A stretch of DNA of 64,000 nt. Source: a virus. The stretch lies in IMG/VR virus record IMGVR_UViG_3300026521_000471, positions 122,518-186,517 of that record. One strand, written 5' to 3'. This document shows, piece by piece, positions 2,154 to 59,301 of the stretch. The translations under genes were made by a program, and so were the position numbers. The first letter of the stretch is position 1. Every line of letters starts with the position of its first letter. A model generated the notes under the pieces. That model worked only from the letters and a program-made list of their open reading frames with translations. It did no database searches and had not been told where the DNA came from.

Positions 2154-2675
2154 ATGAAATTAAAAGACTTAATCAATGAAGAAAAAGAAACTAAAGGGAC
2201 TTATGCAGGTGTATTACTTAGTCAAGACGATGAAGATAAAATCATCTCAATAGTGAAAGAAATGGGAATACCTAATCCTATTCCTCGAAAAGATATTCAT
2301 ATTACACTTTTGTATAGTAGAAAGGTACTACCAGATTATAAACCAAATGAAAATTTAGATATTTGGGCATATCCGACTGAATTTCATATTTTTAATGGTG
2401 GTAATGGTAAAGATATTCTTGTATTAAAGATTGACTCTCCTGATTTAGTTAAAAGACATAAAGAGTTGATGAAAGAACATGAAGCTACTTATGATTTCCC
2501 AGAATATATCCCACATATCACATTAAGTTATGATTTAGAAGATTATTTAAATACAGAAGATGATAGACTTAAAGCCATTAATGAAAAATTTAAAAGTTTA
2601 TTACCTAAAGAGTTTCATTTAGTTAGAGAATACGTAGAAGATTTAAATTTAGATTGGGAGAATAGTAATGACTGA
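2154..2675 (+). CDS. 2H phosphoesterase (LigT / 2'-5' RNA ligase / cyclic phosphodiesterase family)
   Basis: Two H-x-T/S-x motifs (DIHITLLYS and IPHITLSYD) with the spacing typical of the 2H family. Confidence 0.6.
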   Translation: MKLKDLINEEKETKGTYAGVLLSQDDEDKIISIVKEMGIPNPIPRKDIHITLLYSRKVLPDYKPNENLDIWAYPTEFHIFNGGNGKDILVLKIDSPDLVKRHKELMKEHEATYDFPEYIPHITLSYDLEDYLNTEDDRLKAINEKFKSLLPKEFHLVREYVEDLNLDWENSND

Positions 2676-3615
2676 AAATCTGTTAAATTATATTAAAGAG
2701 TTATCACTTAATGATAAAAAAACTTTAATTCAAAAAGTCACTAAGCTATTTGAAGAAGGTGGTGAACTTTCTAAAGTAGTTTTACCATTTGAAGGAGCTT
2801 ATGCTACAAATCATAGAGTAGTAAACAAACAAAAGATTCTTGAAGAATGTGCTGATGTTTTTCTAGTAAACCAAAGTATAATGTATAGTGCCGGGTTTAC
2901 TGATGAAGAATTCAATGATATGGTTTTAAAGAAAGCTCAAGTATGGAATGGATTACAAGTTAAAGAAGATAGAGCATTAGCAAAAAGTGATTTGATGCCT
3001 TATGAAATTCATATTACAGTTAATGCTGAAAATGGCATTGATATAGAACAATATAAAAAAGATTGTAAATTTATCGGTGTTAAACCTATTGTACTTGATT
3101 TACAAGATAAATCCGGTGAACCTGTTATGGATGATGTAATGACTTCATCTAAAATTGTTGGTAATAATGGTGAAGCATTTGAAGAAATGAAAAGAATTTC
3201 TAATCATCTAACTTCACTAGGTTATAATGTAATTAGAGAAAAGATTGAAGCCAGTTATTGGCATACTAAAGCACCTTTTAAAATTGATGGCGATACAAAA
3301 ATGCCAGAGGGATGCTATTTTGAATGCCACCTAAACGTTTCTTGTACAGATGAAAAATTACCTCTACTATCAACTATAGCAAAAAATACAAATTGTCATC
3401 TTTCAAAAAATAAATTTAAAGTATTTGATGATGGAAGCTTTACAATTATGATGACTTATCGAAGCTATGACCAAATGTTTGAAGATTTTGAAGATAGTTT
3501 AAAATGGATTAAAAAATGTTTAATTACAGATAATTTTGAATTAGAAAAAGAAGTAGTGGAATTTAGTATCTATGATACAAAAATTACTCATGACTCAAAA
3601 TGGTTGGAAGCGTAA
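2668..3615 (+). CDS. MazG-like all-alpha NTP pyrophosphohydrolase N-domain fused to an unknown ~200-aa C-domain
   Basis: KLFEEGGELSKVV...EECADVFLV resembles the MazG/HisE EExxE...EELAD signature. Confidence 0.5.
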   Translation: MTENLLNYIKELSLNDKKTLIQKVTKLFEEGGELSKVVLPFEGAYATNHRVVNKQKILEECADVFLVNQSIMYSAGFTDEEFNDMVLKKAQVWNGLQVKEDRALAKSDLMPYEIHITVNAENGIDIEQYKKDCKFIGVKPIVLDLQDKSGEPVMDDVMTSSKIVGNNGEAFEEMKRISNHLTSLGYNVIREKIEASYWHTKAPFKIDGDTKMPEGCYFECHLNVSCTDEKLPLLSTIAKNTNCHLSKNKFKVFDDGSFTIMMTYRSYDQMFEDFEDSLKWIKKCLITDNFELEKEVVEFSIYDTKITHDSKWLEA

Positions 3616-3958
3616 ATTGAATACTAATCTTCTTGAGAAAAAAGCTGATGAATTAATAGACAATGCAGGAATTGTTTGTTTATGCGGTAGTACAAAATTT
3701 AAAAAAGAATTTGAAATAGCTACTTCAATATTATCCAAAAAAGGCTTTATTGTATTAAGTGTTGCACAATTTTCCCATCATGATAATTTACCTTTAACCG
3801 AATTTGAAAAAATAACTTTTAATAAGTTACATTTTAAAAAAATAGAATTAGCAGATTTAGTTTATATTGTCAATCCAAATAATTATATTGGTGAATCTAC
3901 AAAGGATGAAATTGAATATGCTAAATCTCTAAATAAAAAAATACAATATATGTTTTGA
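3572..3958 (+). CDS. nucleoside 2-deoxyribosyltransferase / DNPH1(Rcl)-like protein; true start may be the internal ATG at 3590
   Basis: IVCLCGSTKF...KGFIVLS and ADLVYIVN...IGESTKDEIEYAKSLNKKI resemble the DNPH1/NDT fold signature (GS...AD.VvAevt.PSlG.gyE...A...K.i). Confidence 0.4.
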   Translation: MIQKLLMTQNGWKRKLNTNLLEKKADELIDNAGIVCLCGSTKFKKEFEIATSILSKKGFIVLSVAQFSHHDNLPLTEFEKITFNKLHFKKIELADLVYIVNPNNYIGESTKDEIEYAKSLNKKIQYMF

Positions 3959-3989: not shown

Positions 3990-4148
3990 ATGGATCATAA
4001 AATTCGAGAATTATTAGAAAAAATCCAACATTTTACAAATAAAGCCGTAGGTTTACTACAAGAAGAAAAATATGATGAAGCCGCTTTTTTCTTTAATCTA
4101 AGTTCTAGTTTAAATTCTGAAATCGCATTACTAATAAAGAGAGATTAA
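3990..4148 (+). CDS. small hypothetical protein (52 aa)
   Basis: ATG after a TTGTATAAT promoter (3962-3969) and AAGGAAG ribosome-binding site. Not in ORF track because it is under 60 aa. Confidence 0.3.
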   Translation: MDHKIRELLEKIQHFTNKAVGLLQEEKYDEAAFFFNLSSSLNSEIALLIKRD

Positions 4149-4150
4149 TA

Positions 4151-5482
4151 GTGATTACATTAGAATATGTTGCTAGTGCTTGGATGAATTTTAATTTCCT
4201 AAATTCAAAAGACCCGGAATTATTAAAATGGGCATCTGAAAATTATACTGCAAATTTAAAATATATGATGAGTAAATTAGAAAATAATATTTTTGAATTT
4301 TCCGGACTTTATAATGCTTTTTATGAACCCGAACAATATGAGCGTATTTTAGAATGTGGAATAAGTGATCCGAGTTGCGGACATAAACATGTTTATGCTG
4401 ATAGTGGTGGTCTTCAGATGATGAAGCAAAATCTAAATATTACTGAAGAGATTAAAAAAAATATAATGCAAAATCAAGCAAAATACTCAGATTTTGCATT
4501 TATTTTTGATGAAATACCATCTTATAATGTTGATGATACACGAGTATTTGTGAATGAATGGGTAAAACCTTACGGTGAAAGAACAGGACAAAATTTAAAT
4601 ACATTATTAAAAGTTATAAAAGATAATAATTCTCATACAAAAGCAATACCTATTGTTCAAGGTAGAGGAAGAGAGCAAATAACTGAATTTACAAACGCAA
4701 TGTTATCTCAAATATCAAAGAACGATTTAAAATATATTGAAGCTTTTGCTATGGGTAATGCCCATGGAAATGGTTTTGGTTTATTGCAATCTACTAGTAC
4801 TTTTTTATCTATGAAAAATATCGATAATAAATTTAAAAAACACATTCACTTACTTGGAGTAACAGGTTTTGATAGGATGATTCCAATTCTTCAATTAGTA
4901 AAAAATGGTTTATTTGAGCATACCGAAAAGATTTCATTTGATAGCAGTTATCATGCTAAAACCTATGCTTTTGGCAATCTTCAAAAAAGCGTTGAATGGT
5001 GTATTAATGGTATGCAAGATGATAAATTAGGTTTAAAAAGAAATAAAATGACAGAAGACTTTTTTAAAGAATTAGATGATTTTTGGAAAAATTCTCCCAC
5101 GTATAATATTGATGAATTTGATGACTATTTTAAATATTCATCATGGGATAAAGATAAAATCAACACACCAAATAGACAATTAGCTGAGCGAGACGTAGAA
5201 GCATATAAAAAAAATGTAAATATTATTCAAAATTATATTTTCTTAAATATGTACAAATATTTTGAAGTTTTAAATAAATTTATGACTGATGAACTTACTA
5301 TGGAGCAGATTCTCCATAGTAAAAAAACTCTAAAGATATTCCAACCATTACAAAATGTATATTCACTTGATGAATTATATGATTGGGAAAATTATGCCGC
5401 ATCAAATTATAAAGTTCAAGTTAGTAGCTCTATCGATAAAGCACCTTTTGACATTGATAAAGTAACTGATGTTTTATTTTAA
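4151..5482 (+). CDS. tRNA-guanine transglycosylase-fold protein, DpdA-like (putative DNA 7-deazaguanine transglycosylase), paralogue 1
   Basis: GTG start after a ribosome-binding site. YADSGGLQMM matches the TGT catalytic DSGG(F/Y)Q motif. HLLGVTGFDRMIPILQLVKNGL...ISFDSS matches LMGVG.P...G.DMFDC. No CxCxxC zinc site is present. Confidence 0.7.
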   Translation: MITLEYVASAWMNFNFLNSKDPELLKWASENYTANLKYMMSKLENNIFEFSGLYNAFYEPEQYERILECGISDPSCGHKHVYADSGGLQMMKQNLNITEEIKKNIMQNQAKYSDFAFIFDEIPSYNVDDTRVFVNEWVKPYGERTGQNLNTLLKVIKDNNSHTKAIPIVQGRGREQITEFTNAMLSQISKNDLKYIEAFAMGNAHGNGFGLLQSTSTFLSMKNIDNKFKKHIHLLGVTGFDRMIPILQLVKNGLFEHTEKISFDSSYHAKTYAFGNLQKSVEWCINGMQDDKLGLKRNKMTEDFFKELDDFWKNSPTYNIDEFDDYFKYSSWDKDKINTPNRQLAERDVEAYKKNVNIIQNYIFLNMYKYFEVLNKFMTDELTMEQILHSKKTLKIFQPLQNVYSLDELYDWENYAASNYKVQVSSSIDKAPFDIDKVTDVLF

Positions 5483-5494
5483 TAGGAAACATTT

Positions 5495-6805
5495 ATGACA
5501 ACAAATTTAGAATTCGTTTTTTCAGCTTTTCCTCATTATATGAAAATGTGTAGGCAACAGGGTGAGATGTATAAAGCAACAGCCCAGTCAGTCCAAACAT
5601 CAATAGCATATATGAGATCAAAACTCAAAGATAATGTATCTGTAAGTGCTTTATTTAATGCATATACAGAGGAAGATTGTGCTAGAAATGCATCTAATAG
5701 ATTTACAGGTATGAAATCCATTATTGGTAGTAACCTCTATGCTGATAGTGGTGGATTACAAATGATGACTTTAGGACATACAGTTGATGAAGCACAAAGA
5801 AAAAAAATTTATGAAACCCAAATAAAATATGCGACACATGCTATGAGTTTTGATGAAATTCCCGGTATTTTCATTGATAAAAAAAAATATTATAAACCAG
5901 ATACCGTATATAACTGTGGCGTTATTTCTGGGGGAAATTTACTTGAACAGTATAATTTTTTCAAAGAGGCTAGATCAAATACAAAAATTGTGCCAATTAT
6001 TCAGGGATGGGGTTATAAAGATACAGATCTATTTACTCAAGGTTTGATGACAAATTGTAAAAATATTTGGAACGAATTTGATATGTTAGCTGCTGGATTT
6101 CAAAGTTCATCAATTTGGGGAACGGCTCAAAGAGCAATAGATATATATACAAATCCATTACTCAAAAAACAATTTTTAAATCATTATCACATGCTTGGTA
6201 TGAGTGGTTATAAAAGAATAATCCCTATGATAATGATACTTAAAAGCGGATTAATAAAAGATATGAAGACACTTTCATTTGATAGTTCCTCAATATCTAT
6301 GACATATGTAATGGGCAACGTTATAAAATCGACTGATGATTTAATCAATAATAGAAAATATGAATTGGGGAAAGAAAGAACTAAAGAAGTTGAGGATTAC
6401 TATAAAGAGCTGTATGAATTCTGGAAAGATGCACCCAATTGCAATTTTAAAGATTGGGAAGACTTATTAGAAAATTCTCAATGGAATAGTAGGGGTGTTA
6501 AGAGTGCAAAAGCTCGTCATGATGAAACCAATGATATTAATGAATCATTAAAATATCTGACACAAGAACAATATTTTATTTTCTATAATGTATATAAGTA
6601 TGCTATGGTTCTTGAAGATTTTTTAGAGGGTAATATAGAATTATCAGATATATTTAAAGGTAAGGATTTAGAATTATTCAGTCAATTAGAAAAAATAGAT
6701 AATATAGATGATTTCTATGAATGGCAAGATTATGTAAATAAAACACAAAATATAAAATTAGAAATATTTGAGAAAGATAATGATTTTTCAAATATTTTAT
6801 TTTAA
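5495..6805 (+). CDS. tRNA-guanine transglycosylase-fold protein, DpdA-like, paralogue 2
   Basis: YADSGGLQMM and HMLGMSGYKRIIPMI...LSFDSS; collinear paralogue of the upstream gene. Confidence 0.7.
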   Translation: MTTNLEFVFSAFPHYMKMCRQQGEMYKATAQSVQTSIAYMRSKLKDNVSVSALFNAYTEEDCARNASNRFTGMKSIIGSNLYADSGGLQMMTLGHTVDEAQRKKIYETQIKYATHAMSFDEIPGIFIDKKKYYKPDTVYNCGVISGGNLLEQYNFFKEARSNTKIVPIIQGWGYKDTDLFTQGLMTNCKNIWNEFDMLAAGFQSSSIWGTAQRAIDIYTNPLLKKQFLNHYHMLGMSGYKRIIPMIMILKSGLIKDMKTLSFDSSSISMTYVMGNVIKSTDDLINNRKYELGKERTKEVEDYYKELYEFWKDAPNCNFKDWEDLLENSQWNSRGVKSAKARHDETNDINESLKYLTQEQYFIFYNVYKYAMVLEDFLEGNIELSDIFKGKDLELFSQLEKIDNIDDFYEWQDYVNKTQNIKLEIFEKDNDFSNILF

Positions 6806-6855: not shown

Positions 6856-7917
6856 ATGAAATTAATAGATGTTATTATGGATAACTCATTAGAAATTGAT
6901 GAAGGTTTTATCTTAGAACTAGAGGAATTGGATTTACTTGAAAATATAGTAAATGAATTAGAATTATTAGAAGCTAGAAATATAGCAACTACAAGCAATG
7001 AAAATATAGTGTATGTTAAATCACTTAAAGCATTGCGTGAAAAAGCAAGAAAAATCATTAAAGATGCTATGAAAAAAAATCCAAAAACTAGAGCTGAATT
7101 AATAGCAAAAGTAAGATACTTAACAGGTAGAGGTAAAAAAGAACAACGTATTAAAGATGCTGCAAAAGGAATATATAAAGGTGGTAAACCAGTTGAAGAT
7201 AGCGTATATAATATTACTAAAGCGGATTTAGAAATCATAAAGAAAAATGAAGCAGAAGGTAAATCTAAACCTAAAACATTATCTCCTAACCAAATTACTT
7301 ATAAAGCTAGCCAGACACCAGGTGACTATAAAACATTAACTTTAACTAATCTTTTTGCTATAAAAATTAAAGATAAAGTTTATACAGTTAAATCGGCAGA
7401 AGATAAAATAGAAAAATATGCAACTGATGCAGCAAAAGTTGTAGTTGAAGCTAGAAATAAAACTGCAAAAATTTGTAAAGAGTTTGGGTTAAAAGAACCT
7501 TTCATTCCAAAATCAGAGGAAGAAGCTAAAAAATATATCATTGATGTATTGATTAAACCTATGTCTAAAGCTGCAAGAAATGCTAAAGAAAAAGCTAAAG
7601 AAATGTTAAATCGAAAAATGGCTGGTGAATCATTACCAAAAAATGACTATGTAATTAAAATTGATTCTTATAGACATGGTAAAGTTACAGTTCTTGTTCA
7701 ACTACATCTTGATAAAGTTGTTGAATCATTAGGTTTAGAAGGTATAAAAGCAAGTGAAGTTCCAGATTCATGGTCAGGCACTAAAGCTGCATGGGGGAAA
7801 CAAGTAAAACAGTACAAGGCAGAAATTCAAGATAAGATTGAGTCAATAGCTGGACCAAATGCTACAGTTTCAATCGGTAATGCTGGTGGTTGGATTACTA
7901 TTAGATTTACTAAATAA
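6856..7917 (+). CDS. hypothetical protein (Lys/Glu-rich, possibly structural)
   Basis: ORF track; ribosome-binding site AAAAGGGA upstream. Confidence 0.5.
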   Translation: MKLIDVIMDNSLEIDEGFILELEELDLLENIVNELELLEARNIATTSNENIVYVKSLKALREKARKIIKDAMKKNPKTRAELIAKVRYLTGRGKKEQRIKDAAKGIYKGGKPVEDSVYNITKADLEIIKKNEAEGKSKPKTLSPNQITYKASQTPGDYKTLTLTNLFAIKIKDKVYTVKSAEDKIEKYATDAAKVVVEARNKTAKICKEFGLKEPFIPKSEEEAKKYIIDVLIKPMSKAARNAKEKAKEMLNRKMAGESLPKNDYVIKIDSYRHGKVTVLVQLHLDKVVESLGLEGIKASEVPDSWSGTKAAWGKQVKQYKAEIQDKIESIAGPNATVSIGNAGGWITIRFTK

Positions 7918-7938
7918 TAATACTATAAGGTTGTTTTT

Positions 7939-7946
7939 TGTATAAT
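7939..7946 (+). promoter_or_regulatory. extended -10 promoter TGTATAAT inside the palindrome TGTATAATTACAATTATACA
   Basis: Read from the sequence; 22 nt upstream of ATG 7969. Confidence 0.5.
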
Positions 7947-7968
7947 TACAATTATACAGGAGACAACC

Positions 7969-8862
7969 ATGACAATAGCATTTATTTCGGATATTCATCT
8001 TGATTTTTGGATACCTATAAAATTAAATGGAACTAAAGAAGATTTACGATTAGACAACTTTATATCAAACACTTTAAAACCGATAAAAGCTGATGTACTC
8101 ATTATCGGTGGTGACAATTCCCACTATAATCAACAATTTAAAAAACTCCTTATAAAACTAGCAGAATTAAAATTATTTAAAAAGATAATTATTACTTATG
8201 GTAATCATGATATGTATTTAGTTTCAAATAAACAAATACACGATTATAAAATTTCGATCAATAAAATCACAGAAATGAAAAAAATATGTACTGATATTGA
8301 TACTGTTGAATTTTTAGATGGTAATATAATTGAGGTAGATGGAATAAAAATCGGAGGTTGTGCTATGTGGTATGATTATTCATATGCTAAAAAATTCTTT
8401 AATATGAATGATTTCCATATGCTACAAAAATGGAAACAGGTTATGAATGACGCCAACTATATTTATGGTACAGATCACTTAGGGTTAAATGAAGTTAGAT
8501 CAATGTATTCATATGGAAAAACTAAAATTTATACTTTTGATCCATTGCTATTTTTTGAATCGGAAAAAGATAAACTATTAAAAATAATAGATAAGGTAGA
8601 TATTTTTGTTTCGCATTTTGGTCCAGCTATACCACCCAATTTGGAATCAAAATATATGAATATTGATACAGGTTTTTATTATTTTGATGGCGAACATTAT
8701 CTTTGGGGTGAAAAAGCACCTAAATTATGGATTTTTGGACATACTCATACAAAATATGAATGGAAAGTTAATAATACATGGATGGTATCAAATCCATTAG
8801 GATATAAATCTGAAAATACTGGAACATCTATTGATATAATAGAGTTAGACGACCTTTATTAA
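7969..8862 (+). CDS. calcineurin-like metallophosphoesterase
   Basis: Motifs ISDIHLD, GGDNSHY, YGNHDMY and GHTH. Confidence 0.6.
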   Translation: MTIAFISDIHLDFWIPIKLNGTKEDLRLDNFISNTLKPIKADVLIIGGDNSHYNQQFKKLLIKLAELKLFKKIIITYGNHDMYLVSNKQIHDYKISINKITEMKKICTDIDTVEFLDGNIIEVDGIKIGGCAMWYDYSYAKKFFNMNDFHMLQKWKQVMNDANYIYGTDHLGLNEVRSMYSYGKTKIYTFDPLLFFESEKDKLLKIIDKVDIFVSHFGPAIPPNLESKYMNIDTGFYYFDGEHYLWGEKAPKLWIFGHTHTKYEWKVNNTWMVSNPLGYKSENTGTSIDIIELDDLY

Positions 8863-29333: not shown

Positions 29334-31511
29334 ATGGATGTTAAATATTTTTTAGAAAAATTAGGAAGTTTATTAATTATTGGATTTGTTATTATATCCA
29401 CGTCTATTATACTTTATTTTAGCTATAAGTCAAATAATAAAGATATTATGGATGACATTGACAATAATTTACGCCACGAATTGATTATTTTATCTATTGC
29501 GTCCGAAGATTTGTTTAACAAATATAACAATATACTTACAATGTTAGGGGATAATATTTTATCCAAAGATAATAAACAAAAATATTTAGATACAGCATTA
29601 AAATTAGAAACTGATGCAGTGGGCTATGGTTTTATATCACCCGAAGGTAATATATTAATTAACTCCTCAAACGTCGATATAAAGAAGATCTCTAATTTTA
29701 TCTCCAACCCCAAAACTAAAGGAACATTTCTTAAAACTATAAAATCAAAATCATCAATTTTAGGACGGTCATATTTATTTAAACCGACAAATCAATTAAT
29801 TGTACCAATAAGAAAAAGTATTAGGAAAAATTCAAAAGTATATGGTGTACTAGCGGTAGGCATTAATATAAATAAGTCGTTTTCTAATTTATTTACAAAT
29901 AAAATACATAACAATTCTATAATTTTATTAATCAAAAATAACTCAGCTAGAATTCAATATTCAAACGATAATACGTTCGAAATAGATTCTATTTTAAAAA
30001 CCGATAATCCTCGACTTTTTAAAACTATAAATCAAATGACATTGACTAATACATCATTAAATAATATAAAATATAGGGTAGGTGTAAAATTTATTGAAAA
30101 ATACAATCTATGGCTTGTTATAGGCTTTCCTTCAAAAGTTATATCTTCATTAAAAAATGAATGGTTAATAAATGCTGTATCTATATGGTTTGTTTTTAAC
30201 GTAAGTTTTATTATAATGATATTAATTATTAATAAGATTAATAACGATCGGAAAAATGAATTGGAATATATTTCTATACATGATCCATTAACACATATTG
30301 GAAATAGATATTATTTAAATAAGAAAATAGTCGATTACGAAGAATATAGTATGCTATTTTTAGATCTAGACAATTTTAAATTTATAAATGATAACTTCGG
30401 ACATAATTACGGAGATAAATTTTTAGTTTCTATAGCAACAGAACTTAAAAAAAATATTTCTGCTGATGATTTATTAATACGTTTTAGTGGTGATGAATTT
30501 ATAATTATTACTAGGGAAATGAATAAAGATAAATTATTAAGTTTTGCTAAAAGATTATTGAATATGACTAATGAGAAATTTAAATATGAGCATAAGACAA
30601 CCATGAGTATTGGTATTGCACAACGAGAGGGATCTGAAGATCTACATAATGTAAAATATAAAGCAGATTTAGCTTTATATATAGCAAAAGAAGAACTAAA
30701 CACCATTATATTCTATGATAAAAATATAGAAGAATCATTTAAAGAAGAACATTTAATAGAAAATGAACTATTAGAAGGTATTATTTTAAAAGAAATTTTC
30801 ATGGTTTATCAACCACAATTAAATACTAAAAATAAAATCGTAGGAATAGAAGCATTAGTTCGATGGAATAATTCAAAGTTAGGTTATATAAATCCCGAGA
30901 CATTTATCAAAATCGCTGAAAAAAATGGAAATATGATAATTTTAGGTGATCATATATTAAATCAAGTTTTTAGTGATATTAATACATTTAAAAATATAAT
31001 TCCAGATAATTTTAATATATCTATTAATATTTCTGTTAAACAATTTATGGAAGATAACTTTGTACAAAAATTAAAGGATAAATTATACCAATATAAAGTC
31101 AATCCAAATAATATCACATTAGAAGTAACAGAAAATATATTTATTTTAGATTTAAACTATATGGAACAAATAATAAATGATTTGCATACATTGGGTGTAA
31201 AAATTTCTATTGATGATTTTGGAACAGGATACTCTTCTTTATCTTCTGTTAAACATCTGACTATTGATGAAATAAAGATTGATAAATCTTTTGTAGATAA
31301 TATTGAAAACGACCATAGTTCCAAAAGTATGGCTGAAGTAATTATTAAAATGAGTAAAATTTTTAATACCATTATTTTAGCTGAAGGTATAGAAAATATC
31401 AAACAAAAAGAAATTCTTGATAACTTAGGGTGCGATTTCTACCAAGGATATTACTTTTCAAAACCTTTACCATTAACAAAATTAAAAGAGTTCATAAAAA
31501 ATAATATTTAA
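29334..31511 (+). CDS. membrane-anchored sensor protein with GGDEF (SGDEF variant) and EAL domains (c-di-GMP cyclase/phosphodiesterase family)
   Basis: Two predicted transmembrane segments flank a ~250-aa extracytoplasmic region. GGDEF domain: HDPLTHIGNRYYL, LDLDNFKFINDNFGHNYGDKFL, RFSGDEF. EAL domain: EALVRW, LEVTENI, DDFGTGYSS, KIDKSFV, AEGIEN, QGYYFSKP. Confidence 0.8.
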   Translation: MDVKYFLEKLGSLLIIGFVIISTSIILYFSYKSNNKDIMDDIDNNLRHELIILSIASEDLFNKYNNILTMLGDNILSKDNKQKYLDTALKLETDAVGYGFISPEGNILINSSNVDIKKISNFISNPKTKGTFLKTIKSKSSILGRSYLFKPTNQLIVPIRKSIRKNSKVYGVLAVGININKSFSNLFTNKIHNNSIILLIKNNSARIQYSNDNTFEIDSILKTDNPRLFKTINQMTLTNTSLNNIKYRVGVKFIEKYNLWLVIGFPSKVISSLKNEWLINAVSIWFVFNVSFIIMILIINKINNDRKNELEYISIHDPLTHIGNRYYLNKKIVDYEEYSMLFLDLDNFKFINDNFGHNYGDKFLVSIATELKKNISADDLLIRFSGDEFIIITREMNKDKLLSFAKRLLNMTNEKFKYEHKTTMSIGIAQREGSEDLHNVKYKADLALYIAKEELNTIIFYDKNIEESFKEEHLIENELLEGIILKEIFMVYQPQLNTKNKIVGIEALVRWNNSKLGYINPETFIKIAEKNGNMIILGDHILNQVFSDINTFKNIIPDNFNISINISVKQFMEDNFVQKLKDKLYQYKVNPNNITLEVTENIFILDLNYMEQIINDLHTLGVKISIDDFGTGYSSLSSVKHLTIDEIKIDKSFVDNIENDHSSKSMAEVIIKMSKIFNTIILAEGIENIKQKEILDNLGCDFYQGYYFSKPLPLTKLKEFIKNNI

Positions 31512-40314: not shown

Positions 40315-40517
40315 TGATAACTGAAATTATAAGATTTAACTGTCATGTATTAAAGGTAAATAAATATAACAAAATAACTCCTGATGAATTGTTATTAGAA
40401 TATAAAACTCGTAACAACCTTATTTTAGAAAATACGGAAGTATATGTTGAAAGCTGTAAATGGGCTGCTGGAAGTACTAGTACTATTATAACAAAAGTGA
40501 AAAGGATAGAAAAATGA
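40314..40517 (+). CDS. hypothetical small protein
   Basis: ORF track. Confidence 0.35.
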   Translation: MITEIIRFNCHVLKVNKYNKITPDELLLEYKTRNNLILENTEVYVESCKWAAGSTSTIITKVKRIEK

Positions 40518-40963
40518 CTTATGCTCAAAATAAAAAGGCTAGATTTAATTATGAAATCATAGAAATATTTGAAGCAGGGATTGTACTAACAGGTGGTGAA
40601 GTAAAATCTGTAAGAGATAGTACAATTTCTCTTAAAGAAAGCTATGTTAAAATAAAAAATAATGAATTATTTTTAACTCAAGCTCATGTTTCAGTCCCTA
40701 CATACATACCATCATATGCAGTATTTGATGAAGTCCAAGATAGAAAATTGTTAATGCATAAAAGAGAGATTTTAAAACTTAAAAATAAATTGAAAGAACA
40801 GGGTTTGACTTTAATTGTATTATCAATTTATCAACGTGAAGGCACAAAAAAGATAAAAGTACAGTTGGCATTAGCTAGAGGTAAAAAATTATATAATAAA
40901 AAACAAACTATCAAAGAACGTGATATTAAACGAGATATGGAAAGAACATTAAAAAAATTCTAA
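40514..40963 (+). CDS. smpB: SsrA-binding protein SmpB
   Basis: KKARFNYEIIEIFEAGIVLTGGEVKSVR...LLMHKREILKLKNKLKEQGLTLIVLSIYQREGT.KIKVQLALARGKKLYNKKQTIKERDIKRD aligns along its full length with bacterial SmpB. Confidence 0.85.
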   Translation: MTYAQNKKARFNYEIIEIFEAGIVLTGGEVKSVRDSTISLKESYVKIKNNELFLTQAHVSVPTYIPSYAVFDEVQDRKLLMHKREILKLKNKLKEQGLTLIVLSIYQREGTKKIKVQLALARGKKLYNKKQTIKERDIKRDMERTLKKF

Positions 40964-41003: not shown

Positions 41004-41297
41004 ATGGCAAGAAAGAAAAAGATTCAAGAAGAAGTAGAAGTACCAGTTGTTGAAGTAACTGATGAAGAGATTCAAGAAGAAGTAGAAGTAGAAGTAGAAG
41101 TACCAGTTGTTGAAGTAACTGATGAAGAGATTCAAGAAGAAGTAACTGATGATTTTGATAATATTGCAATTACTGATTATGCTATGGTATCAAATGAATT
41201 AGCAAAAAAAATACTTGAGAAAAAAGGTAAAAAAGTATTATTTGAAGAGCCAGAAGACGTTCAATCTAGCTTTCATATGAAACCATTAAAAAAATAA
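41004..41297 (+). CDS. acidic repeat-containing protein
   Basis: ORF track; contains tandem EEVEVPVVEVTDEEIQEEV repeats. Confidence 0.45.
   Translation: MARKKKIQEEVEVPVVEVTDEEIQEEVEVEVEVPVVEVTDEEIQEEVTDDFDNIAITDYAMVSNELAKKILEKKGKKVLFEEPEDVQSSFHMKPLKK
41021..41152. repeat. tandem direct repeat (~48-60 nt unit, 2.5 copies) within the coding sequence
   Basis: GATTCAAGAAGAAGTAGAAGTACCAGTTGTTGAAGTAACTGATGAAGA is repeated with a 12-nt insertion. Confidence 0.7.
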
Positions 41298-43071: not shown

Positions 43072-44325
43072 ATGGCTATTTTACAGCTCCATTCTGATGA
43101 TCCAAATTTTGGATACATTATCAAAAAAAACCCAAATTCATCTATGCAAATAAGAAGTATACGTAAAGGTACTGCTTTTACATGGTATTCTCATAATGGT
43201 ACCGACTTTAATATTTATTTTAAAGATGCTGATAATGATGTATCGTTTGGATCGCAAGAATTCGATTATCTAAATATTTCTAAATATAATTCACCGATGT
43301 TTATTATCAATGCAATAAGTGAGTTTTTTTCAAGTACTGTTAGAGAAGAATCAGAATTAGATATAAAAAGTTCAAAATATTTTTATATTAACTTACTTGA
43401 AATCAAAAGAATAAAACAATTAATGGATTTTAAGAAATATTTCCCTGATTTTGAAATTGAAATTACCGAACAAGTTGGGAAAAATTATACTATTAAAGTA
43501 ATAACTGAAAATAGTTGGTTTATGTTATTAAATTATATTAATCTTATGATGATTTTTATTGCATTATCAAGTAACGACTACGTACATTTAGATAGTTCAA
43601 ATATTGAAAAATATCTAAATGCTATGAATCGATTGGATGCACCATTTTTTATACGTTATTTAGTAAGTAGAAATCTTATTAAAAGTAAAAACCAATTTAA
43701 AAAATATAAACAATTACTTGAAAAATCAAAAAGATATAATATCAATATGGCATATGGTAATACGGCTATGCAACGGAAAGACAAAATAGAACGTTTATTA
43801 TCATTTGATAAATCGATTCTTGATATTGGGTGTGGAGAAGGTTTTTATGCTATAGATTTTTCTAAAAAAATAGAAAAATATTCTTATAATGCCATTGACA
43901 TTAATCCTAATCTATTAGAGTCGATCAAGATAAAAGCTTCAAAAAAAGAAATTACAAATATTAATCTCTTTAATAGTCTAGAAGATTTTATAAAGATTTA
44001 CAATGATGAGTTAGTAGATATAATACTAACTGAAGTTATTGAACACATGCCAAAAGATGAATCAAAAAGATTAATAGAGACAGTATTGATGTCTATTAAT
44101 TTTAATACATTCATTATTACCGTACCAAATAAAGACTTTAATATTTTTTATGAATTAGGTGATGAAATGAGACATGATGATCATGACTGGGAACCTACAT
44201 TTGATGAATTTAAAAATTTTATAGCTAATTTTAATAATGATGGTTTATCTTTTGAATTTATAGAAATAGGTGATACTATCGATGGTATCTCTACAAGTAT
44301 CGGTTGTATAATTAAAAAGGTATAA
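43072..44325 (+). CDS. hen1: Hen1-like RNA 3'-terminal 2'-O-methyltransferase (bacterial Hen1 architecture: N-terminal domain plus C-terminal Mg-dependent methyltransferase)
   Basis: C-terminal domain: ILDIGCGEGFYAIDF (SAM motif I), LTEVIEHMPKDE (the Hen1 EVIEH metal motif), MRHDDHDWEPTFDEF (Hen1 HxDHxFEWTxxEF). The ~240-aa N-domain is consistent with the ligase-activating domain. Confidence 0.8.
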   Translation: MAILQLHSDDPNFGYIIKKNPNSSMQIRSIRKGTAFTWYSHNGTDFNIYFKDADNDVSFGSQEFDYLNISKYNSPMFIINAISEFFSSTVREESELDIKSSKYFYINLLEIKRIKQLMDFKKYFPDFEIEITEQVGKNYTIKVITENSWFMLLNYINLMMIFIALSSNDYVHLDSSNIEKYLNAMNRLDAPFFIRYLVSRNLIKSKNQFKKYKQLLEKSKRYNINMAYGNTAMQRKDKIERLLSFDKSILDIGCGEGFYAIDFSKKIEKYSYNAIDINPNLLESIKIKASKKEITNINLFNSLEDFIKIYNDELVDIILTEVIEHMPKDESKRLIETVLMSINFNTFIITVPNKDFNIFYELGDEMRHDDHDWEPTFDEFKNFIANFNNDGLSFEFIEIGDTIDGISTSIGCIIKKV

Positions 44326-46102: not shown

Positions 46103-48793
46103 ATGAATAAAATTAAAACACAAGTACATACTATAATAATGCTTATTGGACCTAGTGGTTCTGGTAAAACAACATTCGCTAATGAAATTCTAATACCCAC
46201 ATTACAAGAATATAAAGGTAGTGGAAATGACAATTTAAAAACAAATATACAATATATTAGTTCTGATGATATTAGAAAAGATATTTTAGGATATAATTAT
46301 AGTAAAATAGATGAAATTATGACTGAAAGTTCAACACAAGCATTTGAAATATTATTTACAAAATTAAGAGCTGTTACTAGTTATCCAATCAATGCTGAAT
46401 TTGTTATTTTAGATACAACTGGATTAAGTGAAAAATTTAGAAATGATGTTTTAGATATAGCAAAAGATAATAATTATAATGTCGATATTATAGTTTTCGA
46501 TTATAAGAATATTGATGAATATCAGAAAAATTTTTCTGATGAAGTTTATCAACAACCTAGTACTAATGGCAAAATTATTTCTAAGCATATAAAAAGATTA
46601 AAAACAGAAACATTAAAAACATTAAAAAAAGGTGTATATAAAAATATTCATAAAATTAAAAATAAAGATTTTCTTTTAGAAGTTGAACAGGAGAATCCAT
46701 ATGATTTAACACCTACTATGTTAAAACCTCTTTATAGTGTAGATGTATGGGATTGGAAAAAATATACTGATAGAATATTAAATAGTACTTATGATTGGAT
46801 TACTATTGGTGATGTTCATGGATGTATTCATGAATTAAAACAATTACTTGAAAAATATGGTTTTATAATTGAAGACAATGAAATCATAGATACAAACAAA
46901 ACAAAAAATATAGGATTGATTTTTGCAGGTGATTTAATTGATAAGTCGTCAGAAGAAGATTTAACTGAAACTATAAGATTTATACATAAAAATATGATAA
47001 AATTTCAAGATCGTTTTCAATTAATATTAGGTAATCATGAAGAGATGGTCTGGAAATGGATAACAAATCATAAAGATTTAGAAATTACTCCAGAACGATT
47101 GGATCAGAAAAAAAGATACTATAATACAGCAATTTTACTAGAGAAAAATGAAGAGTTAAAATCTATGTTTTTAGATATTTTTCATAATATGAAAGGTTGG
47201 GTTAAATTTATAGGATTAAACAAAAGAAGTTTTGTAGTTACACATGCACCATGTGAGGTTAAATATCTCGAAAAAATGGATCGTATTTCATTAAAACGTC
47301 AATATAAATGCGCTAGTAGAAGTAAAAACAAAGATAAGACTAATGATGAACTAACACCATATTTAAAAGAAGAAGCAGTTAATAACCATCCAGTTCACAT
47401 ATTTGGTCATATGGGACAATCATCTGTTAGATCTTTTAAAAATAAAGTTTGTATTGATACAGGCTGTGTATATGGTGGAAGATTAACTGGATACAGTATA
47501 GGATACGGTAAACCATTTATTCAAAGTGTAAAATCATTATCTCCTAAGAGTGCAAGAAACGACTTTGGAAATAATCTATTTGAAGATATAGGTAAAGCTA
47601 TAAAAGAAGTATCTATTGAAGATTTAAATCCATACAACCAAAAAAGATTAGATTATATAGTAAAAAATGGCATAGGATACATAGGAGGTACAATTTCACC
47701 TTCAAATAAAAACATCGAAAAAAATTCACTAGAATCTTTAGATAGTGGACTTAATTATTTCAAAGATAAAGTAGATAGTGTAGTTCTACAACCTAAATAT
47801 ATGGGGTCTAGAGCACAACTGTATCTCTTTAAAGATAATATTGAAAAATGCTATGCTACAAGTAGAAATGGATATAAAATTAGAGAGGACTTAACTGATT
47901 TATTCTCATCTAAATTAATAGAATACAAGCATATTTTTGATATGTATAATGCTGATGAGATAATTATAGATGGTGAATTATTACCATGGGCTCTTTTAGG
48001 AAAAGGTTTGATAGAAACACATTTTAAAACTGCGGATATAGCTATCCAAACAGAAATCGACTTTCTGGATGATAATGGGTTTGATAAGGCTTTTTTAAGT
48101 TTAAAGGATGAATTTAATGAATCAGAATTTTTAAAAGATAAAAATATTTTAGCTAAAAAAGAATTAGCTAAAAAATATGGTCACAAATATCACTCTTATA
48201 AAGATTTAAAATTTGAAATTGATAGATTCATACCTTTAAGTAAACACAAAAAAGCTTGGAAAATTTTCAATAAACAAATAACCCTTTATGGAGATGATAC
48301 AAATACAGATTTTAAAGGTTTTAGATTATTAAAAGTAATATCAAATAACAATATAATCGATTTGGATCTAACCCCTAGCGAACACTTTAAACTATTAAAT
48401 TCAGATGATATTCATATTGTTGATTTCAATGATAAAGACTATTTAGTTAAAGCTGAAAGATGGTATGATGATTTAGTGAGTAATCAAAATATGGAAGGTT
48501 GTGTAATAAAACCGGAAGTAAAGTTATTAGAATCTTGGATTGCTCCATATTTAAAAGTAAGAAATGAAGAATATCTTTCTATCATTTATGGGTATGATTA
48601 TAAATTCCCTGTCAAATTTAATAGATTATTAAATCAAAAAAATATTTCTAAAAAATTAAGACTCTCTATATCAGAGTATAAATTAGGAGAAGAAATGCTT
48701 AAAGCTCCTATGGGTAGTAAAGAACAAATACAGATTATAGCCAATCTATTATTTGAAAATGAAAAAGAAGAAAGCGTCGATCCAAGATTATAA
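46103..48793 (+). CDS. pnkp: bacterial-type polynucleotide kinase-phosphatase-ligase (Pnkp): P-loop 5'-kinase, metallophosphatase, and adenylyltransferase/ligase domains
   Basis: IMLIGPSGSGKTTFAN (kinase P-loop). ITIGDVHGC, IFAGDLIDK and LGNHEE (calcineurin-like phosphatase). C-terminal ...VVLQPKYMGSRAQLY (nucleotidyltransferase KxxG motif I). At 896 aa with this domain order it matches Clostridium-type Pnkp. Confidence 0.85.
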   Translation: MNKIKTQVHTIIMLIGPSGSGKTTFANEILIPTLQEYKGSGNDNLKTNIQYISSDDIRKDILGYNYSKIDEIMTESSTQAFEILFTKLRAVTSYPINAEFVILDTTGLSEKFRNDVLDIAKDNNYNVDIIVFDYKNIDEYQKNFSDEVYQQPSTNGKIISKHIKRLKTETLKTLKKGVYKNIHKIKNKDFLLEVEQENPYDLTPTMLKPLYSVDVWDWKKYTDRILNSTYDWITIGDVHGCIHELKQLLEKYGFIIEDNEIIDTNKTKNIGLIFAGDLIDKSSEEDLTETIRFIHKNMIKFQDRFQLILGNHEEMVWKWITNHKDLEITPERLDQKKRYYNTAILLEKNEELKSMFLDIFHNMKGWVKFIGLNKRSFVVTHAPCEVKYLEKMDRISLKRQYKCASRSKNKDKTNDELTPYLKEEAVNNHPVHIFGHMGQSSVRSFKNKVCIDTGCVYGGRLTGYSIGYGKPFIQSVKSLSPKSARNDFGNNLFEDIGKAIKEVSIEDLNPYNQKRLDYIVKNGIGYIGGTISPSNKNIEKNSLESLDSGLNYFKDKVDSVVLQPKYMGSRAQLYLFKDNIEKCYATSRNGYKIREDLTDLFSSKLIEYKHIFDMYNADEIIIDGELLPWALLGKGLIETHFKTADIAIQTEIDFLDDNGFDKAFLSLKDEFNESEFLKDKNILAKKELAKKYGHKYHSYKDLKFEIDRFIPLSKHKKAWKIFNKQITLYGDDTNTDFKGFRLLKVISNNNIIDLDLTPSEHFKLLNSDDIHIVDFNDKDYLVKAERWYDDLVSNQNMEGCVIKPEVKLLESWIAPYLKVRNEEYLSIIYGYDYKFPVKFNRLLNQKNISKKLRLSISEYKLGEEMLKAPMGSKEQIQIIANLLFENEKEESVDPRL

Positions 48794-49912: not shown

Positions 49913-50551
49913 ATGAAAAAAATACTTATAGTAGTAGACTACCAATTTGACTTTGCTAGCCCAACAGGGGCTCTATCAGTACCCAATGCTGATAAAATAG
50001 TTGATAACATCCAATCTTATATCAATGATAAATCGTATGAAAATATAATTTATACTTTTGATACTCATACATCTGATAAATATAATGGTTCTGATGAATC
50101 TAAAATTTTTCCTTCAATTCATTGTGAATTTGGAACAATCGGTTGGAATTTTTATAAAATTAAACCCAGATATAAAAATTGGGATAATTTTATTGCAAAT
50201 CGTGGAATCGATGAAGGTACAGTACCTTTTAACACCTTTATAGTTGAATCGGAAATGTTTTTTACAAAAGATGTTTTTGATATTTGGCAAGGAAATTCAA
50301 TCTTTAAATCTATTTTTACAAATACCTTTAAACCAAAGGACACAATTATAGACATTGTAGGTGTAGCTACAAATTACTGCGTATTTATGAATGTTATGGG
50401 TCTAGTAAAAAATGGTTATACAGTTAATGTTCTTTCAGATGCTGTTGAAGGGATTAAATCATTTCCAGATGGATCAATAGATGATAGTTTTCAAACAAAT
50501 ATCAATGTTATGAAAAATAAAGGTGTAACTTTTTCTGGAGACATAAAATGA
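49913..50551 (+). CDS. pncA: nicotinamidase PncA (isochorismatase/cysteine-hydrolase family)
   Basis: ILIVVDYQFDF (VDxQxDF), catalytic-triad context, and ...VGVATNYCVFMN (nucleophile Cys). Confidence 0.75.
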   Translation: MKKILIVVDYQFDFASPTGALSVPNADKIVDNIQSYINDKSYENIIYTFDTHTSDKYNGSDESKIFPSIHCEFGTIGWNFYKIKPRYKNWDNFIANRGIDEGTVPFNTFIVESEMFFTKDVFDIWQGNSIFKSIFTNTFKPKDTIIDIVGVATNYCVFMNVMGLVKNGYTVNVLSDAVEGIKSFPDGSIDDSFQTNINVMKNKGVTFSGDIK

Positions 50552-51444
50552 TTATGAAAGTAATAGAAAGTTCAGAAGAGAATGTTTGGAAATATATTTT
50601 TAATGATAATGAAATAGTTTTGGAAAGTGTATTATATAAATACGGTTCATTCGATAAAAGAACTGTTATTTGTTGTTCTGTACAAAGTGGTTGTCCGGTT
50701 GGATGTACATTTTGTGGAACAGGTGCAAATTTCTTAAAAAATATTTCATCAGATCAAATAGTTGAGCAAATAACAACTATTTTTAAAGATAAAAATATCG
50801 AGGATATAAACAGTAGATGTGAAAAGCTTCAAATAATGTTTATGAGTATGGGTGAACCATTTCTTAATTACAAAAATGTTAAAGAAGCAATAATTAAATT
50901 GAATAAATTATACCCTAATGCCGACTTATTAATATCTACTGTTGGTATTAATGATGATAAAATTTTTAAAGATTTTATTTCATTATCTAAAATGATTAAA
51001 AAAGTTGGTTTACAATTTAGTATTCATAAATCAAATGATACAGATAGAGATAAATTAATACCCTTTAAAAAGAAATATACACTTAGGGAAATCAGAGATA
51101 GAGGTACTATTTGGCATAAAGAAACAGGGAGACAAGTATATCTCAACTACTGTGTTGATGGTACAAATAATAGTCAAAATGATATTGAGAATCTTAAGAA
51201 TCTCTTTTCTCCAATTATTTTTAATATGACATTTAGTGTTATTTGTGAAGCAGATGAAACAATGAAAGATAGTTCATGTAGAAATTTGAATACGATTAGA
51301 GATTTTGAAAAATCTTTTATTGAAGAAGGGTATAATACCAGAATATTTGATCCTGCTGGACAGGACGATATTGGTGGAGGATGTGGCCAATTATGGTTCG
51401 TTCAAGATTATCTTAAAAATAAAAAAATGAAAGCAGAGGTATAA
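50548..51444 (+). CDS. radical-SAM RNA methyltransferase of the RlmN/Cfr family, lacking the N-terminal domain
   Basis: CCSVQSGCPVGCTFCGTG (CxxxCxxC), FMSMGEPFLN, and C-terminal GQDDIGGGCGQLWF (the second catalytic Cys motif DIDAACGQL of RlmN). Confidence 0.8.
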   Translation: MIMKVIESSEENVWKYIFNDNEIVLESVLYKYGSFDKRTVICCSVQSGCPVGCTFCGTGANFLKNISSDQIVEQITTIFKDKNIEDINSRCEKLQIMFMSMGEPFLNYKNVKEAIIKLNKLYPNADLLISTVGINDDKIFKDFISLSKMIKKVGLQFSIHKSNDTDRDKLIPFKKKYTLREIRDRGTIWHKETGRQVYLNYCVDGTNNSQNDIENLKNLFSPIIFNMTFSVICEADETMKDSSCRNLNTIRDFEKSFIEEGYNTRIFDPAGQDDIGGGCGQLWFVQDYLKNKKMKAEV

Positions 51445-51448
51445 AATT

Positions 51449-52402
51449 ATGGAAAAAATAGAAACACTAACCGATATGGTAGAAGTAATCAGAGAAATAA
51501 AAACACCGACAAGTCAAAAAGCTAATATGGTTGTAGGAAATATTAGAGCACAAATTAAAAATTACGTACAACGTAATAATCTTAAATCACTTGTAGTAGG
51601 TGTGAGTGGGGGTCTTGATTCAGCTGTTGTAGCGGCTCTTTGTCAAGAAGAATTTACAGGAGTACCTCTAATTGGTCTTTCTATTCCTATGAGTTCAACT
51701 AACGCTCACAAAGAACAGGCAGAATGGGTAGGTAATACCTTTTGTACGGCTTTTGAAGAATTCAACTATTGGGATGAAACTTTTCAGTACAATGAAGAAG
51801 AAGGTACTGATATGATGAGTGAAGTATTTAATACCGTTTCAGCAACAGATAAAGTTGCTGAAAAAGCAGGATTTAAAACGGAAGATTTTCCAAAAAATGT
51901 TCTTCAAGGTAATATTAAAGCGAGGCTTAGAATGATAACTCTTTATGACCTTGCAAGAAAAACAAACGGTATGGTTCTTTCAACAGATAACCTTTCTGAA
52001 TTTCAAATGGGATTTTGGACTATTTGTGGTGATGTAGGTGATTTTGGACCTATCCAAAATGTTGGTAAGGGGTTTGAGCTTCCAGCCATAGCAAGAGCTC
52101 TTGGAATAAGAGCAGATATTATCACTCAATCGCCTAGTGATGGACTAATGGTAACTGAAGAAAATACAGATGAGGCTCAACTTGGAGCTAATTATGAGGA
52201 AGTTGATACTATTATGAGTATTTATCTTGGCAATATCAATAAACCAAAAGAAATTATAGATAAACTTAAAAGTAACCTATTTAATATTATTAATGATAAA
52301 AAGAGTGCTAAGAAAATTTCAAATGTAATTACACGTTATGAAAATTCACACTTTAAACGTAATGGTACAATCAACCTTACAAGAGAACAGATCGGAATCT
52401 AA
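51449..52402 (+). CDS. nadE: NH3-dependent NAD+ synthetase NadE
   Basis: LVVGVSGGLDSAVVAALC (PP-loop), KARLRMITLYDLAR, VLSTDNLSEFQMGFWTICGDVGDFGPIQ and QSPSDGL...LGANYEEVD all align with E. coli NadE. Its length and motifs do not fit QueC. Confidence 0.8.
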   Translation: MEKIETLTDMVEVIREIKTPTSQKANMVVGNIRAQIKNYVQRNNLKSLVVGVSGGLDSAVVAALCQEEFTGVPLIGLSIPMSSTNAHKEQAEWVGNTFCTAFEEFNYWDETFQYNEEEGTDMMSEVFNTVSATDKVAEKAGFKTEDFPKNVLQGNIKARLRMITLYDLARKTNGMVLSTDNLSEFQMGFWTICGDVGDFGPIQNVGKGFELPAIARALGIRADIITQSPSDGLMVTEENTDEAQLGANYEEVDTIMSIYLGNINKPKEIIDKLKSNLFNIINDKKSAKKISNVITRYENSHFKRNGTINLTREQIGI

Positions 52403-58773: not shown

Positions 58774-58941
58774 ATGAAATACGGTTTTAGTTTATTTGAA
58801 TTAATTATTGTAGTTGTAATATTGGGAATTCTAGCAGCAGTTGCTATTCCTAGATTATCAAATTCTTCATCAAATAATGATAAAATTTCATACAAAAAAA
58901 TAATTTTTACTAATGGTGATGGTGGATCCGCCGAGAATTGA
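58774..58941 (+). CDS. short type IV pilin/pseudopilin-like ORF (55 aa): prepilin leader and N-terminal hydrophobic helix only
   Basis: MKYG|FSLFELIIVVVILGILAAVAIP is a canonical class III signal peptide with Glu at +5. The 3' end overlaps the tmRNA 3' terminus. Not in ORF track because it is under 60 aa. Confidence 0.35.
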   Translation: MKYGFSLFELIIVVVILGILAAVAIPRLSNSSSNNDKISYKKIIFTNGDGGSAEN

Positions 58942-59301
58942 ACTCGGGTCTGCCACTACTTCCATTTAAATCTCATTTACAAGTTTAGTTTGATTTTTAA
59001 TACTTTAATACTTAGATAACCAAACAAATCGGTATTAAAGGCACTTGATATAATTTTCGTCTAAAGGTATCAAGTTTAACTTTAGCTTATCTATTTTTTA
59101 TTATACACTCTGTATTTATTAGTAAATAGACAACTAATAAACTGAGTGATTCCGGGCTCCCAGAGGGAGGATTAAGCAGCTACTCTCGCAGTCTGTGGAA
59201 TATAAAGTTTTGTGTTTGCATTTAAGCTTTTTTGATGATTAAGTCATCACTCTACTTGCAATTTAAATTTCTTATAGCAACATCGATCCCAATTCGGACC
59301 C
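58920..59301 (-). ncRNA. ssrA: tmRNA (SsrA), 382 nt
   Basis: Minus-strand 5' end GGGUCCGAAUUGGGAUCGAUG resembles the tmRNA 5' end GGGGCUGAUUCUGGAUUCGAC. The 3' end is ...CCGAGUUCAAUUCUCGGCGGAUCCACCA (T-arm plus acceptor plus CCA). The acceptor stem pairs with a G3:U70 wobble (alanine identity). An internal tag ORF (59219..59172) reads GCA AAC ACA AAA CUU UAU AUU CCA CAG ACU GCG AGA GUA GCU GCU UAA, giving ANTKLYIPQTARVAA, followed by a CUCCC/GGGAG helix. Confidence 0.8.

Follow-up and report, generated by a model that had tools for sequence, protein, structure and literature searches.

The closest described relatives of the genes considered here are the phage DpdA2 enzymes, a subfamily defined on Vibrio phage nt-1 (PMC6884629), whose nt-1 member inserts 7-cyano-7-deazaguanine (preQ0) into DNA in E. 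coli and whose VH7D member, also on DNA in E. coli, uses 7-aminomethyl-7-deazaguanine (preQ1) best, then preQ0 and then 7-carboxy-7-deazaguanine (CDG) (PMC10516641), with 15% of the corresponding preQ1 deoxynucleoside (dPreQ1) reported for a related vibriophage (PMC12028318). Other clusters include DpdL, a proposed CDG decarboxylase yielding 7-deazaguanine, in which LxxxHRHxF replaces the CxxxHGH of QueD, and such a DpdA3/DpdL cluster in phiST also includes a MazG/dUTPase-like gene (PMC10516641). Here, we describe a tandem pair of genes, "A" and "B", found at positions 4151 to 6805 of a 64,000-nucleotide stretch of the IMG/VR virus record IMGVR_UViG_3300026521_000471 (positions 122,518 to 186,517 of the record; this whole stretch is hereafter "the window"), which quite probably encode two co-transcribed and, by prediction, catalytically competent DNA-guanine transglycosylases of the DpdA2 family, belonging to an expanded paralogue set of AT-rich jumbo phages.

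The fold of A and B is revealed only through structure and profile methods. Nothing was retrieved for either protein from Pfam (E value up to 0.1), NCBIfam (E value up to 1), PADLOC or the PDB sequences (phmmer/hmmsearch), the Pfam PF01702 and NCBIfam Tgt models included, and in PHROGs both fall into the unannotated phrog_10773 (E 8e-52 and 2e-37). Foldseek gives the DNA preQ0 insertase DpdA (7ui4) as the best match, and structure comparison scores the two proteins at 17.7 and 19.7 against bacterial tRNA-guanine transglycosylase (TGT; 3unt), 17.3 and 19.0 against DpdA 7ui4, 17.2 and 17.9 against QTRT2 (6fv5), 14.8 and 16.8 against the archaeal enzyme ArcTGT (1iq8) and 14.0 and 14.7 against Cap10 (9ntn), the best unrelated TIM barrel reaching 12.4 and 13.3; the TGT-superfamily feature present in both is, in other words, a (beta/alpha)8 TIM barrel closest to TGT or DpdA structures. 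An earlier note on this DNA, made from the letters alone, had proposed just such a DpdA-like TGT fold on the strength of the DSGGLQ and LGxxG...SFDSS motifs, and the positions of these hold at the residue level: DSGGLQ lies at residue 84 and FDEIP at residue 119 in A and B alike, HLLGVTG (A) or HMLGMSG (B) follows C-terminally to FDEIP, and the FDS of SFDSS is found at residue 263 (A) or 262 (B). Aligning a profile of the family with E. coli Tgt (hhalign probability 94.8%) pairs DSGGLQ with DSGGFQ, FDEIP with FDECT, IVQG with IIQG and LLGVG with LMGVG, the equivalence of FDS to the nucleophile-bearing FDC of Tgt being drawn from position and order, as FDS falls outside the hhalign alignment. 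DSGGLQ, FD[EV]xP and FDS are kept in 26/26 of the clade A, B and C paralogues delineated below. The same note had the zinc site missing, and neither the CxCxxC...H motif nor any C-x(1-4)-C pair is indeed present in A (3 Cys) or B (5 Cys); CxCxxC is likewise absent from the DpdA2-family sequences examined, three of which have another C-x(2-4)-C pair.

Megablast found no isolate phage matching the region; tblastn retrieved 71 isolate phage records matching A, one copy apiece, including the KVP40/nt-1/VH7D group of Vibrio phages, Stenotrophomonas phage Moby, Pseudomonas phage pf16 and Acidovorax phage ACP17. These homologues sit among folE, queC, queE, queD and queF; VH7D gp012, pf16 gp80 and Moby gp042, for instance, are flanked by folE, queF, queC and queE, and we infer from its position between folE and queF that VH7D gp012 is the published DpdA2. 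Conversely, tblastn of the VH7D, pf16 and Moby DpdA2 against the window recovers both open reading frames (ORFs) with E values of 1e-15 to 4e-34. A HMMER scan of 1.84 billion representatives yielded 566 family clusters, and cellular genomes contained a relative on only 4 metagenome-assembled genome (MAG) contigs among 185,579 species, none of them of the window's lineage, so that the DpdA2 family is essentially viral. In the 80 best DpdA2 loci of IMG/VR, which served as a comparison set, at least one que gene (FolE, QueD, QueE, QueC or QueF) is found within 10 kb of dpdA2 in 80/80 cases. Both copies thus group with the DNA-modifying DpdA2 and not with the tRNA-modifying Tgt, an outcome on which the earlier note had made its reading depend, and we assign A and B, by homology, to the phage DpdA2 family as divergent members.

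The pair does not represent a recent duplication. A and B are 31% identical over 424 residues (BLASTP E 5e-65, far beyond chance), which agrees with the paralogue-level similarity noted earlier, and in bootstrapped neighbor-joining (NJ) trees of Kimura-corrected identity distances, clade A (winA, i.e., A of the window, P0003, P0008, L008 and k74205_A), clade B1 (seven orthologues), B1 together with winB, clade B2 and clade C (C1 and C2) are each recovered with a bootstrap of 100%, A+B+C being set apart from canonical DpdA2 at 79%. Two other histories were rejected: recent tandem duplication, as winA + winB monophyly has a bootstrap of 0%, and orthology of B to B1, as winB + own-lineage B1 likewise has 0% and the lineage has a separate B1, B being sister to all of the B1 orthologues. 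Since A and B fall within separate clades of 100% support, they are old paralogues. The paralogues diverge most where TGT has the loop (its GGLAVGE segment) bordering the pocket for the 7-substituent; this loop reads A[MLC]GNAHGN in clade A, AAGFQSS in B, A[TS]GF... in B1, and AxADTCI or AMG[GA]AAL in canonical DpdA2 (AxADTCI in nt-1-like enzymes), and this divergence suggests that the paralogues differ in their base or DNA context preferences.

How many such paralogues one genome holds becomes apparent from contigs reaching beyond the window. The window (27% G+C) matches the 140,120-bp ENA metagenome contig k141_278161, from whose copy (L100) it departs by a ~60-nt indel within a short repeat tract (~41074-41084) and by four mismatches elsewhere, so that the two are probably different assemblies of one strain; a 224,467-bp contig holds exact copies of several window proteins, B among them, and a second strain is represented by the 221,509-bp Joint Genome Institute (JGI) contig Ga0256837_1000002 (L104) at 88% nucleotide identity. 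The source is thus a jumbo phage with a genome of ~222 kb, of which the window covers ~29%; together with L012, L013 and L104, the span read amounts to ~92 kb (~41% of the genome), from ~18.5 kb upstream of the window start to ~9.6 kb past its end. A third copy, a true B1, is found in the JGI strain ~15 kb upstream of A, a placement that follows from this B1 ending 57 nt before the upstream limit of the window-strain sequence read. Relatives go further: a 306-kb IMG/VR contig has four copies as two tandem pairs, beside queE, a Gat-like gene and queC; three further metagenomic loci have three copies each; and the 60,164-bp contig k127_74205 has five paralogues, with queD, B2, queE, queC, C1, C2 and B1 at 8-25 kb and a clade A gene at 44.7 kb, i.e., 20-37 kb away from queD, queE and queC, this contig being syntenic with the window (topoisomerase, NUDIX, AAA_5, Acb1 and T5 dNMPase-like genes). 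At least three DpdA2 copies are thus carried by the ~222-kb lineage, and four or five by its relatives. Between the two strains, B is 96.3% identical (DnaB 94%, two other proteins 92%), and the conservation of B points to purifying selection acting on it. No description of multi-copy DpdA2 was found in the searchable literature, which does not span all journals, and the arrangement of multiple old paralogues per genome, with a pair detached from the que genes and with DpdL-type accessory genes, is an undescribed one.

By analogy with TGT and DpdA, each enzyme would flip out a guanine of the phage DNA after replication; the Asp of FDS would attack C1' and guanine would depart, upon which the sugar would be joined to a free 7-deazaguanine base that the aspartates of DSGGLQ and FDEIP hold in place. 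Most likely, the paralogues would specialise, either in particular DNA sequence contexts or in particular bases, and such a division of labour could lead to a larger fraction of G being replaced and, in turn, to a genome shielded from restriction and other DNA-targeting defences.

Which base is inserted may be gleaned from the genes accompanying the third copy, the presence of which also shows that the A/B pair is not the whole system. Upstream of the lineage's B1 in the JGI strain there are, in order, genes for a group-1 glycosyltransferase (GT1), a radical-SAM/SPASM protein, an 826-aa protein, a 120-aa protein, a 362-aa GT-B-like protein and a DUF7487 homing-endonuclease-like protein, and counterparts of the glycosyltransferase-like, radical-SAM and GT1 proteins, with identities of 90% or more, are encoded on the 224,467-bp contig, which represents the strain of the window. 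The 120-aa protein has no Pfam PTPS match, yet its LKERHRHIF fits the DpdL signature; ACP17 gp125, at 41% identity, shares this motif, and L35, H39, R40, H41 and F43 do not vary among 12 homologues of this DpdL-like family. The distance from dpdA2 to the start of the DpdL-like gene has a median of 12 nt. The 362-aa GT-B-like protein, a conserved companion of DpdA2 and DpdL, is homologous to ACP17 gp124, with a further homologue in L096, and in the 80 IMG/VR loci (L015-L094) such a glycosyltransferase-like gene is found in 45, QueC in 26 and the two together in 0 (Fisher p = 9e-14, for loci that are not phylogenetically independent and are incomplete in some cases). Homologues of the GT-B-like protein are also present in PA5oct-like Pseudomonas jumbo phages, and it is these phages that are absent from the isolate records matching A. 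Given the DpdL-like and glycosyltransferase-like genes, with QueC not found, the lineage would be of a QueC-less, DpdL type, from which 2'-deoxy-7-deazaguanosine (dDG) or another CDG-derived base is likelier than dPreQ0 or 2'-deoxyarchaeosine (dG+), two of the products that the earlier note had suggested looking for; for the inserted base itself, 7-deazaguanine or some other CDG derivative is accordingly more probable than preQ0. The CDG could be supplied either by phage genes in the remaining ~130 kb or by the host, and the glycosyltransferase-like protein may be a missing component of the dDG route, a candidacy that arises because no dDG formed in E. coli with only DpdL and DpdA.

This last result, obtained with dpdL and dpdA of ACP17 (PMC10516641), and the only proposed function of DpdL are among the points weighing against our preferred reading of A and B as DNA-modifying members of a DpdA2 set. 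By hhalign, QueD and the DpdL-like family are only weakly alike (probability 37%, E 3.5e-4, 43 C-terminal residues); clades A, B and C are only 25-32% identical to the validated DpdA2 enzymes, their activity being a predicted one; the trees are NJ only; and the division of labour among paralogues is purely conjectural. Finally, neither FolE, QueD, QueE, QueC and QueF nor a Gat-like protein was found in the ~92 kb using tblastn and unfiltered family hidden Markov models (HMMs). The observation in the earlier note that preQ0 synthesis genes are missing from the window is correct as such, even though a window of this size says little about the genome as a whole. Two candidates within it, being its only radical-SAM and its only PP-loop gene, were rejected as QueE and QueC: the former is RlmN/Cfr-like, and the latter is NadE, both neighbouring PncA in a nicotinamide adenine dinucleotide (NAD) salvage group.

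The same shortage of que genes around the pair would also be explained if the phage made no 7-deazaguanine base itself and A and B salvaged preQ0, preQ1 or CDG from the host, resulting in sparse modification or none, as in the "DpdA-only" phages, 76 of which are known, one with 0.02% 2'-deoxy-7-amido-7-deazaguanosine (dADG) and one with nothing (PMC6884629). Nor did the top 120 matches listed for QueC and for QueE homologues include a contig of this genome, which is a weak negative, as these lists miss homologues below ~50% identity, the QueC of k127_74205 itself included. We consider salvage a possibility, albeit a clearly less probable one: que genes adjoin dpdA2 in all 80 of the other loci, syntenic k127_74205 has queD, queE and queC within 20-37 kb of its clade A gene, the lineage retains DpdL-like and accessory genes that need CDG, and ~130 kb of the genome lie outside the span read.

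It is unlikely, in turn, that A and B are subunits of a single enzyme, an obligate heterodimer such as eukaryotic QTRT1/QTRT2. TGT-family enzymes do act as dimers (PMC6884629), the two genes are separated by 12 nt only, and relatives repeatedly show two different paralogues side by side, namely B2+C1 and C2+B1 in the 306-kb uncultivated viral genome (UViG), B2+C1 in L096 and B1+C2 in L097; however, A and B both keep every catalytic residue, unlike QTRT2, the partner of a given clade varies across genomes, and the clade A genes of L008 and L010 are isolated, being at least 20 kb from the nearest other paralogue. Doubtful to a similar degree is an extension of our preferred reading, under which the 3-5 paralogues would make up a multi-specificity set, each serving a different context or 7-deazaguanine derivative, possibly as mixed dimers, and would, with the DpdL, glycosyltransferase-like (here, the missing factor) and radical-SAM partners, replace most or all G with 7-deazaguanine or a further decorated, hitherto undescribed derivative. 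That one or both paralogues act on RNA instead (tRNA wobble G34 or similar) as part of a phage RNA-repair/translation kit is very improbable, for although the window is rich in Thg1-like, Pnkp/Hen1-like, Rnl1-like, TROVE, transfer-messenger RNA (tmRNA) and SmpB genes and an aspartyl-tRNA synthetase gene lies inside a relative's que/dpdA2 cluster (tRNA-Asp and tRNA-His being queuosine-modified tRNAs), A and B nest within DpdA2, the tested members of which are DNA-modifying, have no zinc subdomain like that of the tRNA TGTs, come from a window without tRNA genes and from a family virtually absent from cellular genomes, and have DpdL and MazG partners that match phage DNA-modification clusters.

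A DNA-modifying paralogue set, as we prefer to read the locus, would be of interest beyond it. A single DpdA enzyme reaches G in certain contexts only, the G modified reportedly ranging from ~0.1 to 30% for DpdA1 and typically staying below 0.1% for DpdA2, apart from the related vibriophage with 15%, while some phages arrive at full G replacement. An array of old paralogues that are, by motif, catalytically intact is a natural experiment in the diversification of target/substrate specificity and a concrete enzyme set for side-by-side testing, while the either/or pattern of QueC and the glycosyltransferase-like gene points to a candidate component of the dDG route; enzymes of this kind are of use in producing DNA that resists restriction or bears special labels. 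The known chemistry is left intact by all this, the paralogue arrays and the either/or pattern being testable leads.

The features are collected in Table 1. A and B share a frame, and purine-rich ribosome-binding sites precede both (AGGAAA 6 nt 5' of the ATG of B, and AAGAGAG 5' of the GTG of A); a terminator scan of the spacer between them found no terminator-like site, which makes it probable that the two are co-transcribed. Of the neighbours that the earlier note had taken for a nucleotide-modification surrounding, the MazG-like gene fares well, its L096 homologue (45% identical) lying between radical-SAM and glycosyltransferase-like genes of a DpdA2/DpdL cluster, and it is a probable accessory gene of the dpdA2 module. 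PADLOC models labelled AbiEi recognise the last 200 residues of this MazG-like protein (E 1e-31). The deoxyribosyltransferase-like gene is another matter: with its marginal domain match, no PHROG match and no homologue at the other DpdA2 loci examined, it does not appear to be a conserved neighbour of the family, and its link to the module is that of an unproven candidate.

Table 1. Coordinates of the features discussed, given for the window unless a locus is named.
Feature	Coordinates	Strand	Remarks
dpdA2 paralogue A (clade A)	4151..5482	+	GTG start, 443 aa; all catalytic motifs, no zinc site
A-B spacer	5483..5494	+	12 nt; contains the ribosome-binding site of B
dpdA2 paralogue B	5495..6805	+	ATG start, 436 aa; all catalytic motifs, no zinc site
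Acb1 anti-CBASS phosphodiesterase	2154-2675		Pfam E 1e-33
MazG-like pyrophosphatase with extra C-terminal domain	2668..3615	+	PHROG 1247, E 2.5e-39
Small protein, marginal DUF4406 (nucleoside deoxyribosyltransferase-like clan)	3572..3958	+	Pfam 21.9 bits, cut-off 22
52-aa ORF	3990..4148	+	ends 2 nt 5' of the A start codon; called as a gene on four independent contigs
GGDEF-EAL protein	29334-31511		725 aa
SmpB homologue	40514-40963	+	18 kb from the tmRNA
RNA-repair kit	43072-44325, 46103-48793, 53349-54488, 57368-58771, 59620-61119		Hen1-like methyltransferase, Pnkp-like kinase/phosphatase/ligase, Thg1-like, T4 Rnl1-like ligase, TROVE/Ro60-like
NAD salvage set	49913-52402		PncA-like nicotinamidase, NadE
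RlmN/Cfr-like radical-SAM gene	50548-51444		rejected as QueE
NadE (PP-loop) gene	51449-52402		rejected as QueC
tmRNA	58920-59301	-	tag ANTKLYIPQTARVAA
NAPRTase and NADAR genes	L013:1236-2600		upstream
362-aa GT-B-like gene	L104:5526-6614		
ACP17 gp124	L109:6992-8020		homologue of the 362-aa GT-B-like protein
GT-B-like gene of L096	L096:7573-8700		likewise
DUF7487 genes	L096:9278-9764; L097:5110-6108, 7548-8696; L104:6620-7705		adjoin dpdA2
Aspartyl-tRNA synthetase gene	L101:5127-7010		five-paralogue relative

DUF7487 (TnsA-like/homing-endonuclease-like) genes repeatedly adjoin dpdA2 and could be what moves the paralogues to different positions from genome to genome. In the five-paralogue relative, the aspartyl-tRNA synthetase gene separates queD from the first dpdA2 copy. 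The QueE proteins of sister jumbo phages share 52-53% identity with Aliarcobacter cryaerophilus QueE (matches P0252, P0263-P0268), and this similarity, together with a G+C content of 27-31%, hints at Campylobacterota (Aliarcobacter-like) hosts for these phages. Other genes of the window include the tmRNA and its SmpB, the RNA-repair kit, Acb1 (directed against the cyclic-oligonucleotide-based anti-phage signaling system, CBASS), a GGDEF-EAL protein, with more GGDEF genes in both flanks, and the NAD salvage set, in which a truncated RlmN/Cfr-like radical-SAM RNA methyltransferase gene interrupts the succession of PncA and NadE and to which nicotinate phosphoribosyltransferase (NAPRTase) and NADAR genes upstream belong.

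When set against the known systems, the locus stands closest to phage DpdA2 (nt-1 YP_008125322 and VH7D gp012; Hutinet 2019, 2023), to which A and B are homologous across the whole TIM barrel with tblastn E values of 1e-22 to 4e-34, sharing the DSGGLQ, FDEIP, xQG, LGVG and FDS motifs, the lack of a zinc site, the phage-only distribution and relatives in que clusters. They differ from it in that A, B and C form clades of their own at 25-32% identity, in occurring as 3-5 copies per genome instead of the one copy seen in 71/71 isolate records, in their distinct pocket loop and in the A/B pair having no que gene nearby, whereas que genes are adjacent to the clade B and C genes of relatives. Bacterial DpdA (7ui4) and the bacterial, archaeal and eukaryotic TGTs are more remote, giving no significant sequence match to A or B; the zinc CxCxxC...H subdomain of TGT is replaced in A and B by a helical C-terminal domain, and no ATPase partner of the DpdB type was seen here. 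QTRT1/QTRT2 offer a parallel in being two TGT-fold paralogues of one organism, with QTRT2 among the top structural matches, but QTRT2 is a non-catalytic accessory subunit and the target is tRNA, whereas A and B both have the catalytic residues. With the DpdL-type clusters (ACP17 with DpdA2; phiST with DpdA3 and 100% dDG), the lineage shares the DpdL-like, gp124-like glycosyltransferase-like and MazG-like genes, as well as QueC not having been found; ACP17 and 45 IMG/VR loci, however, have folE, queD and queE adjacent to a single DpdA2, as opposed to none of these within 92 kb and at least three copies here, and the accessory genes are in this lineage split into two groups ~15 kb apart.

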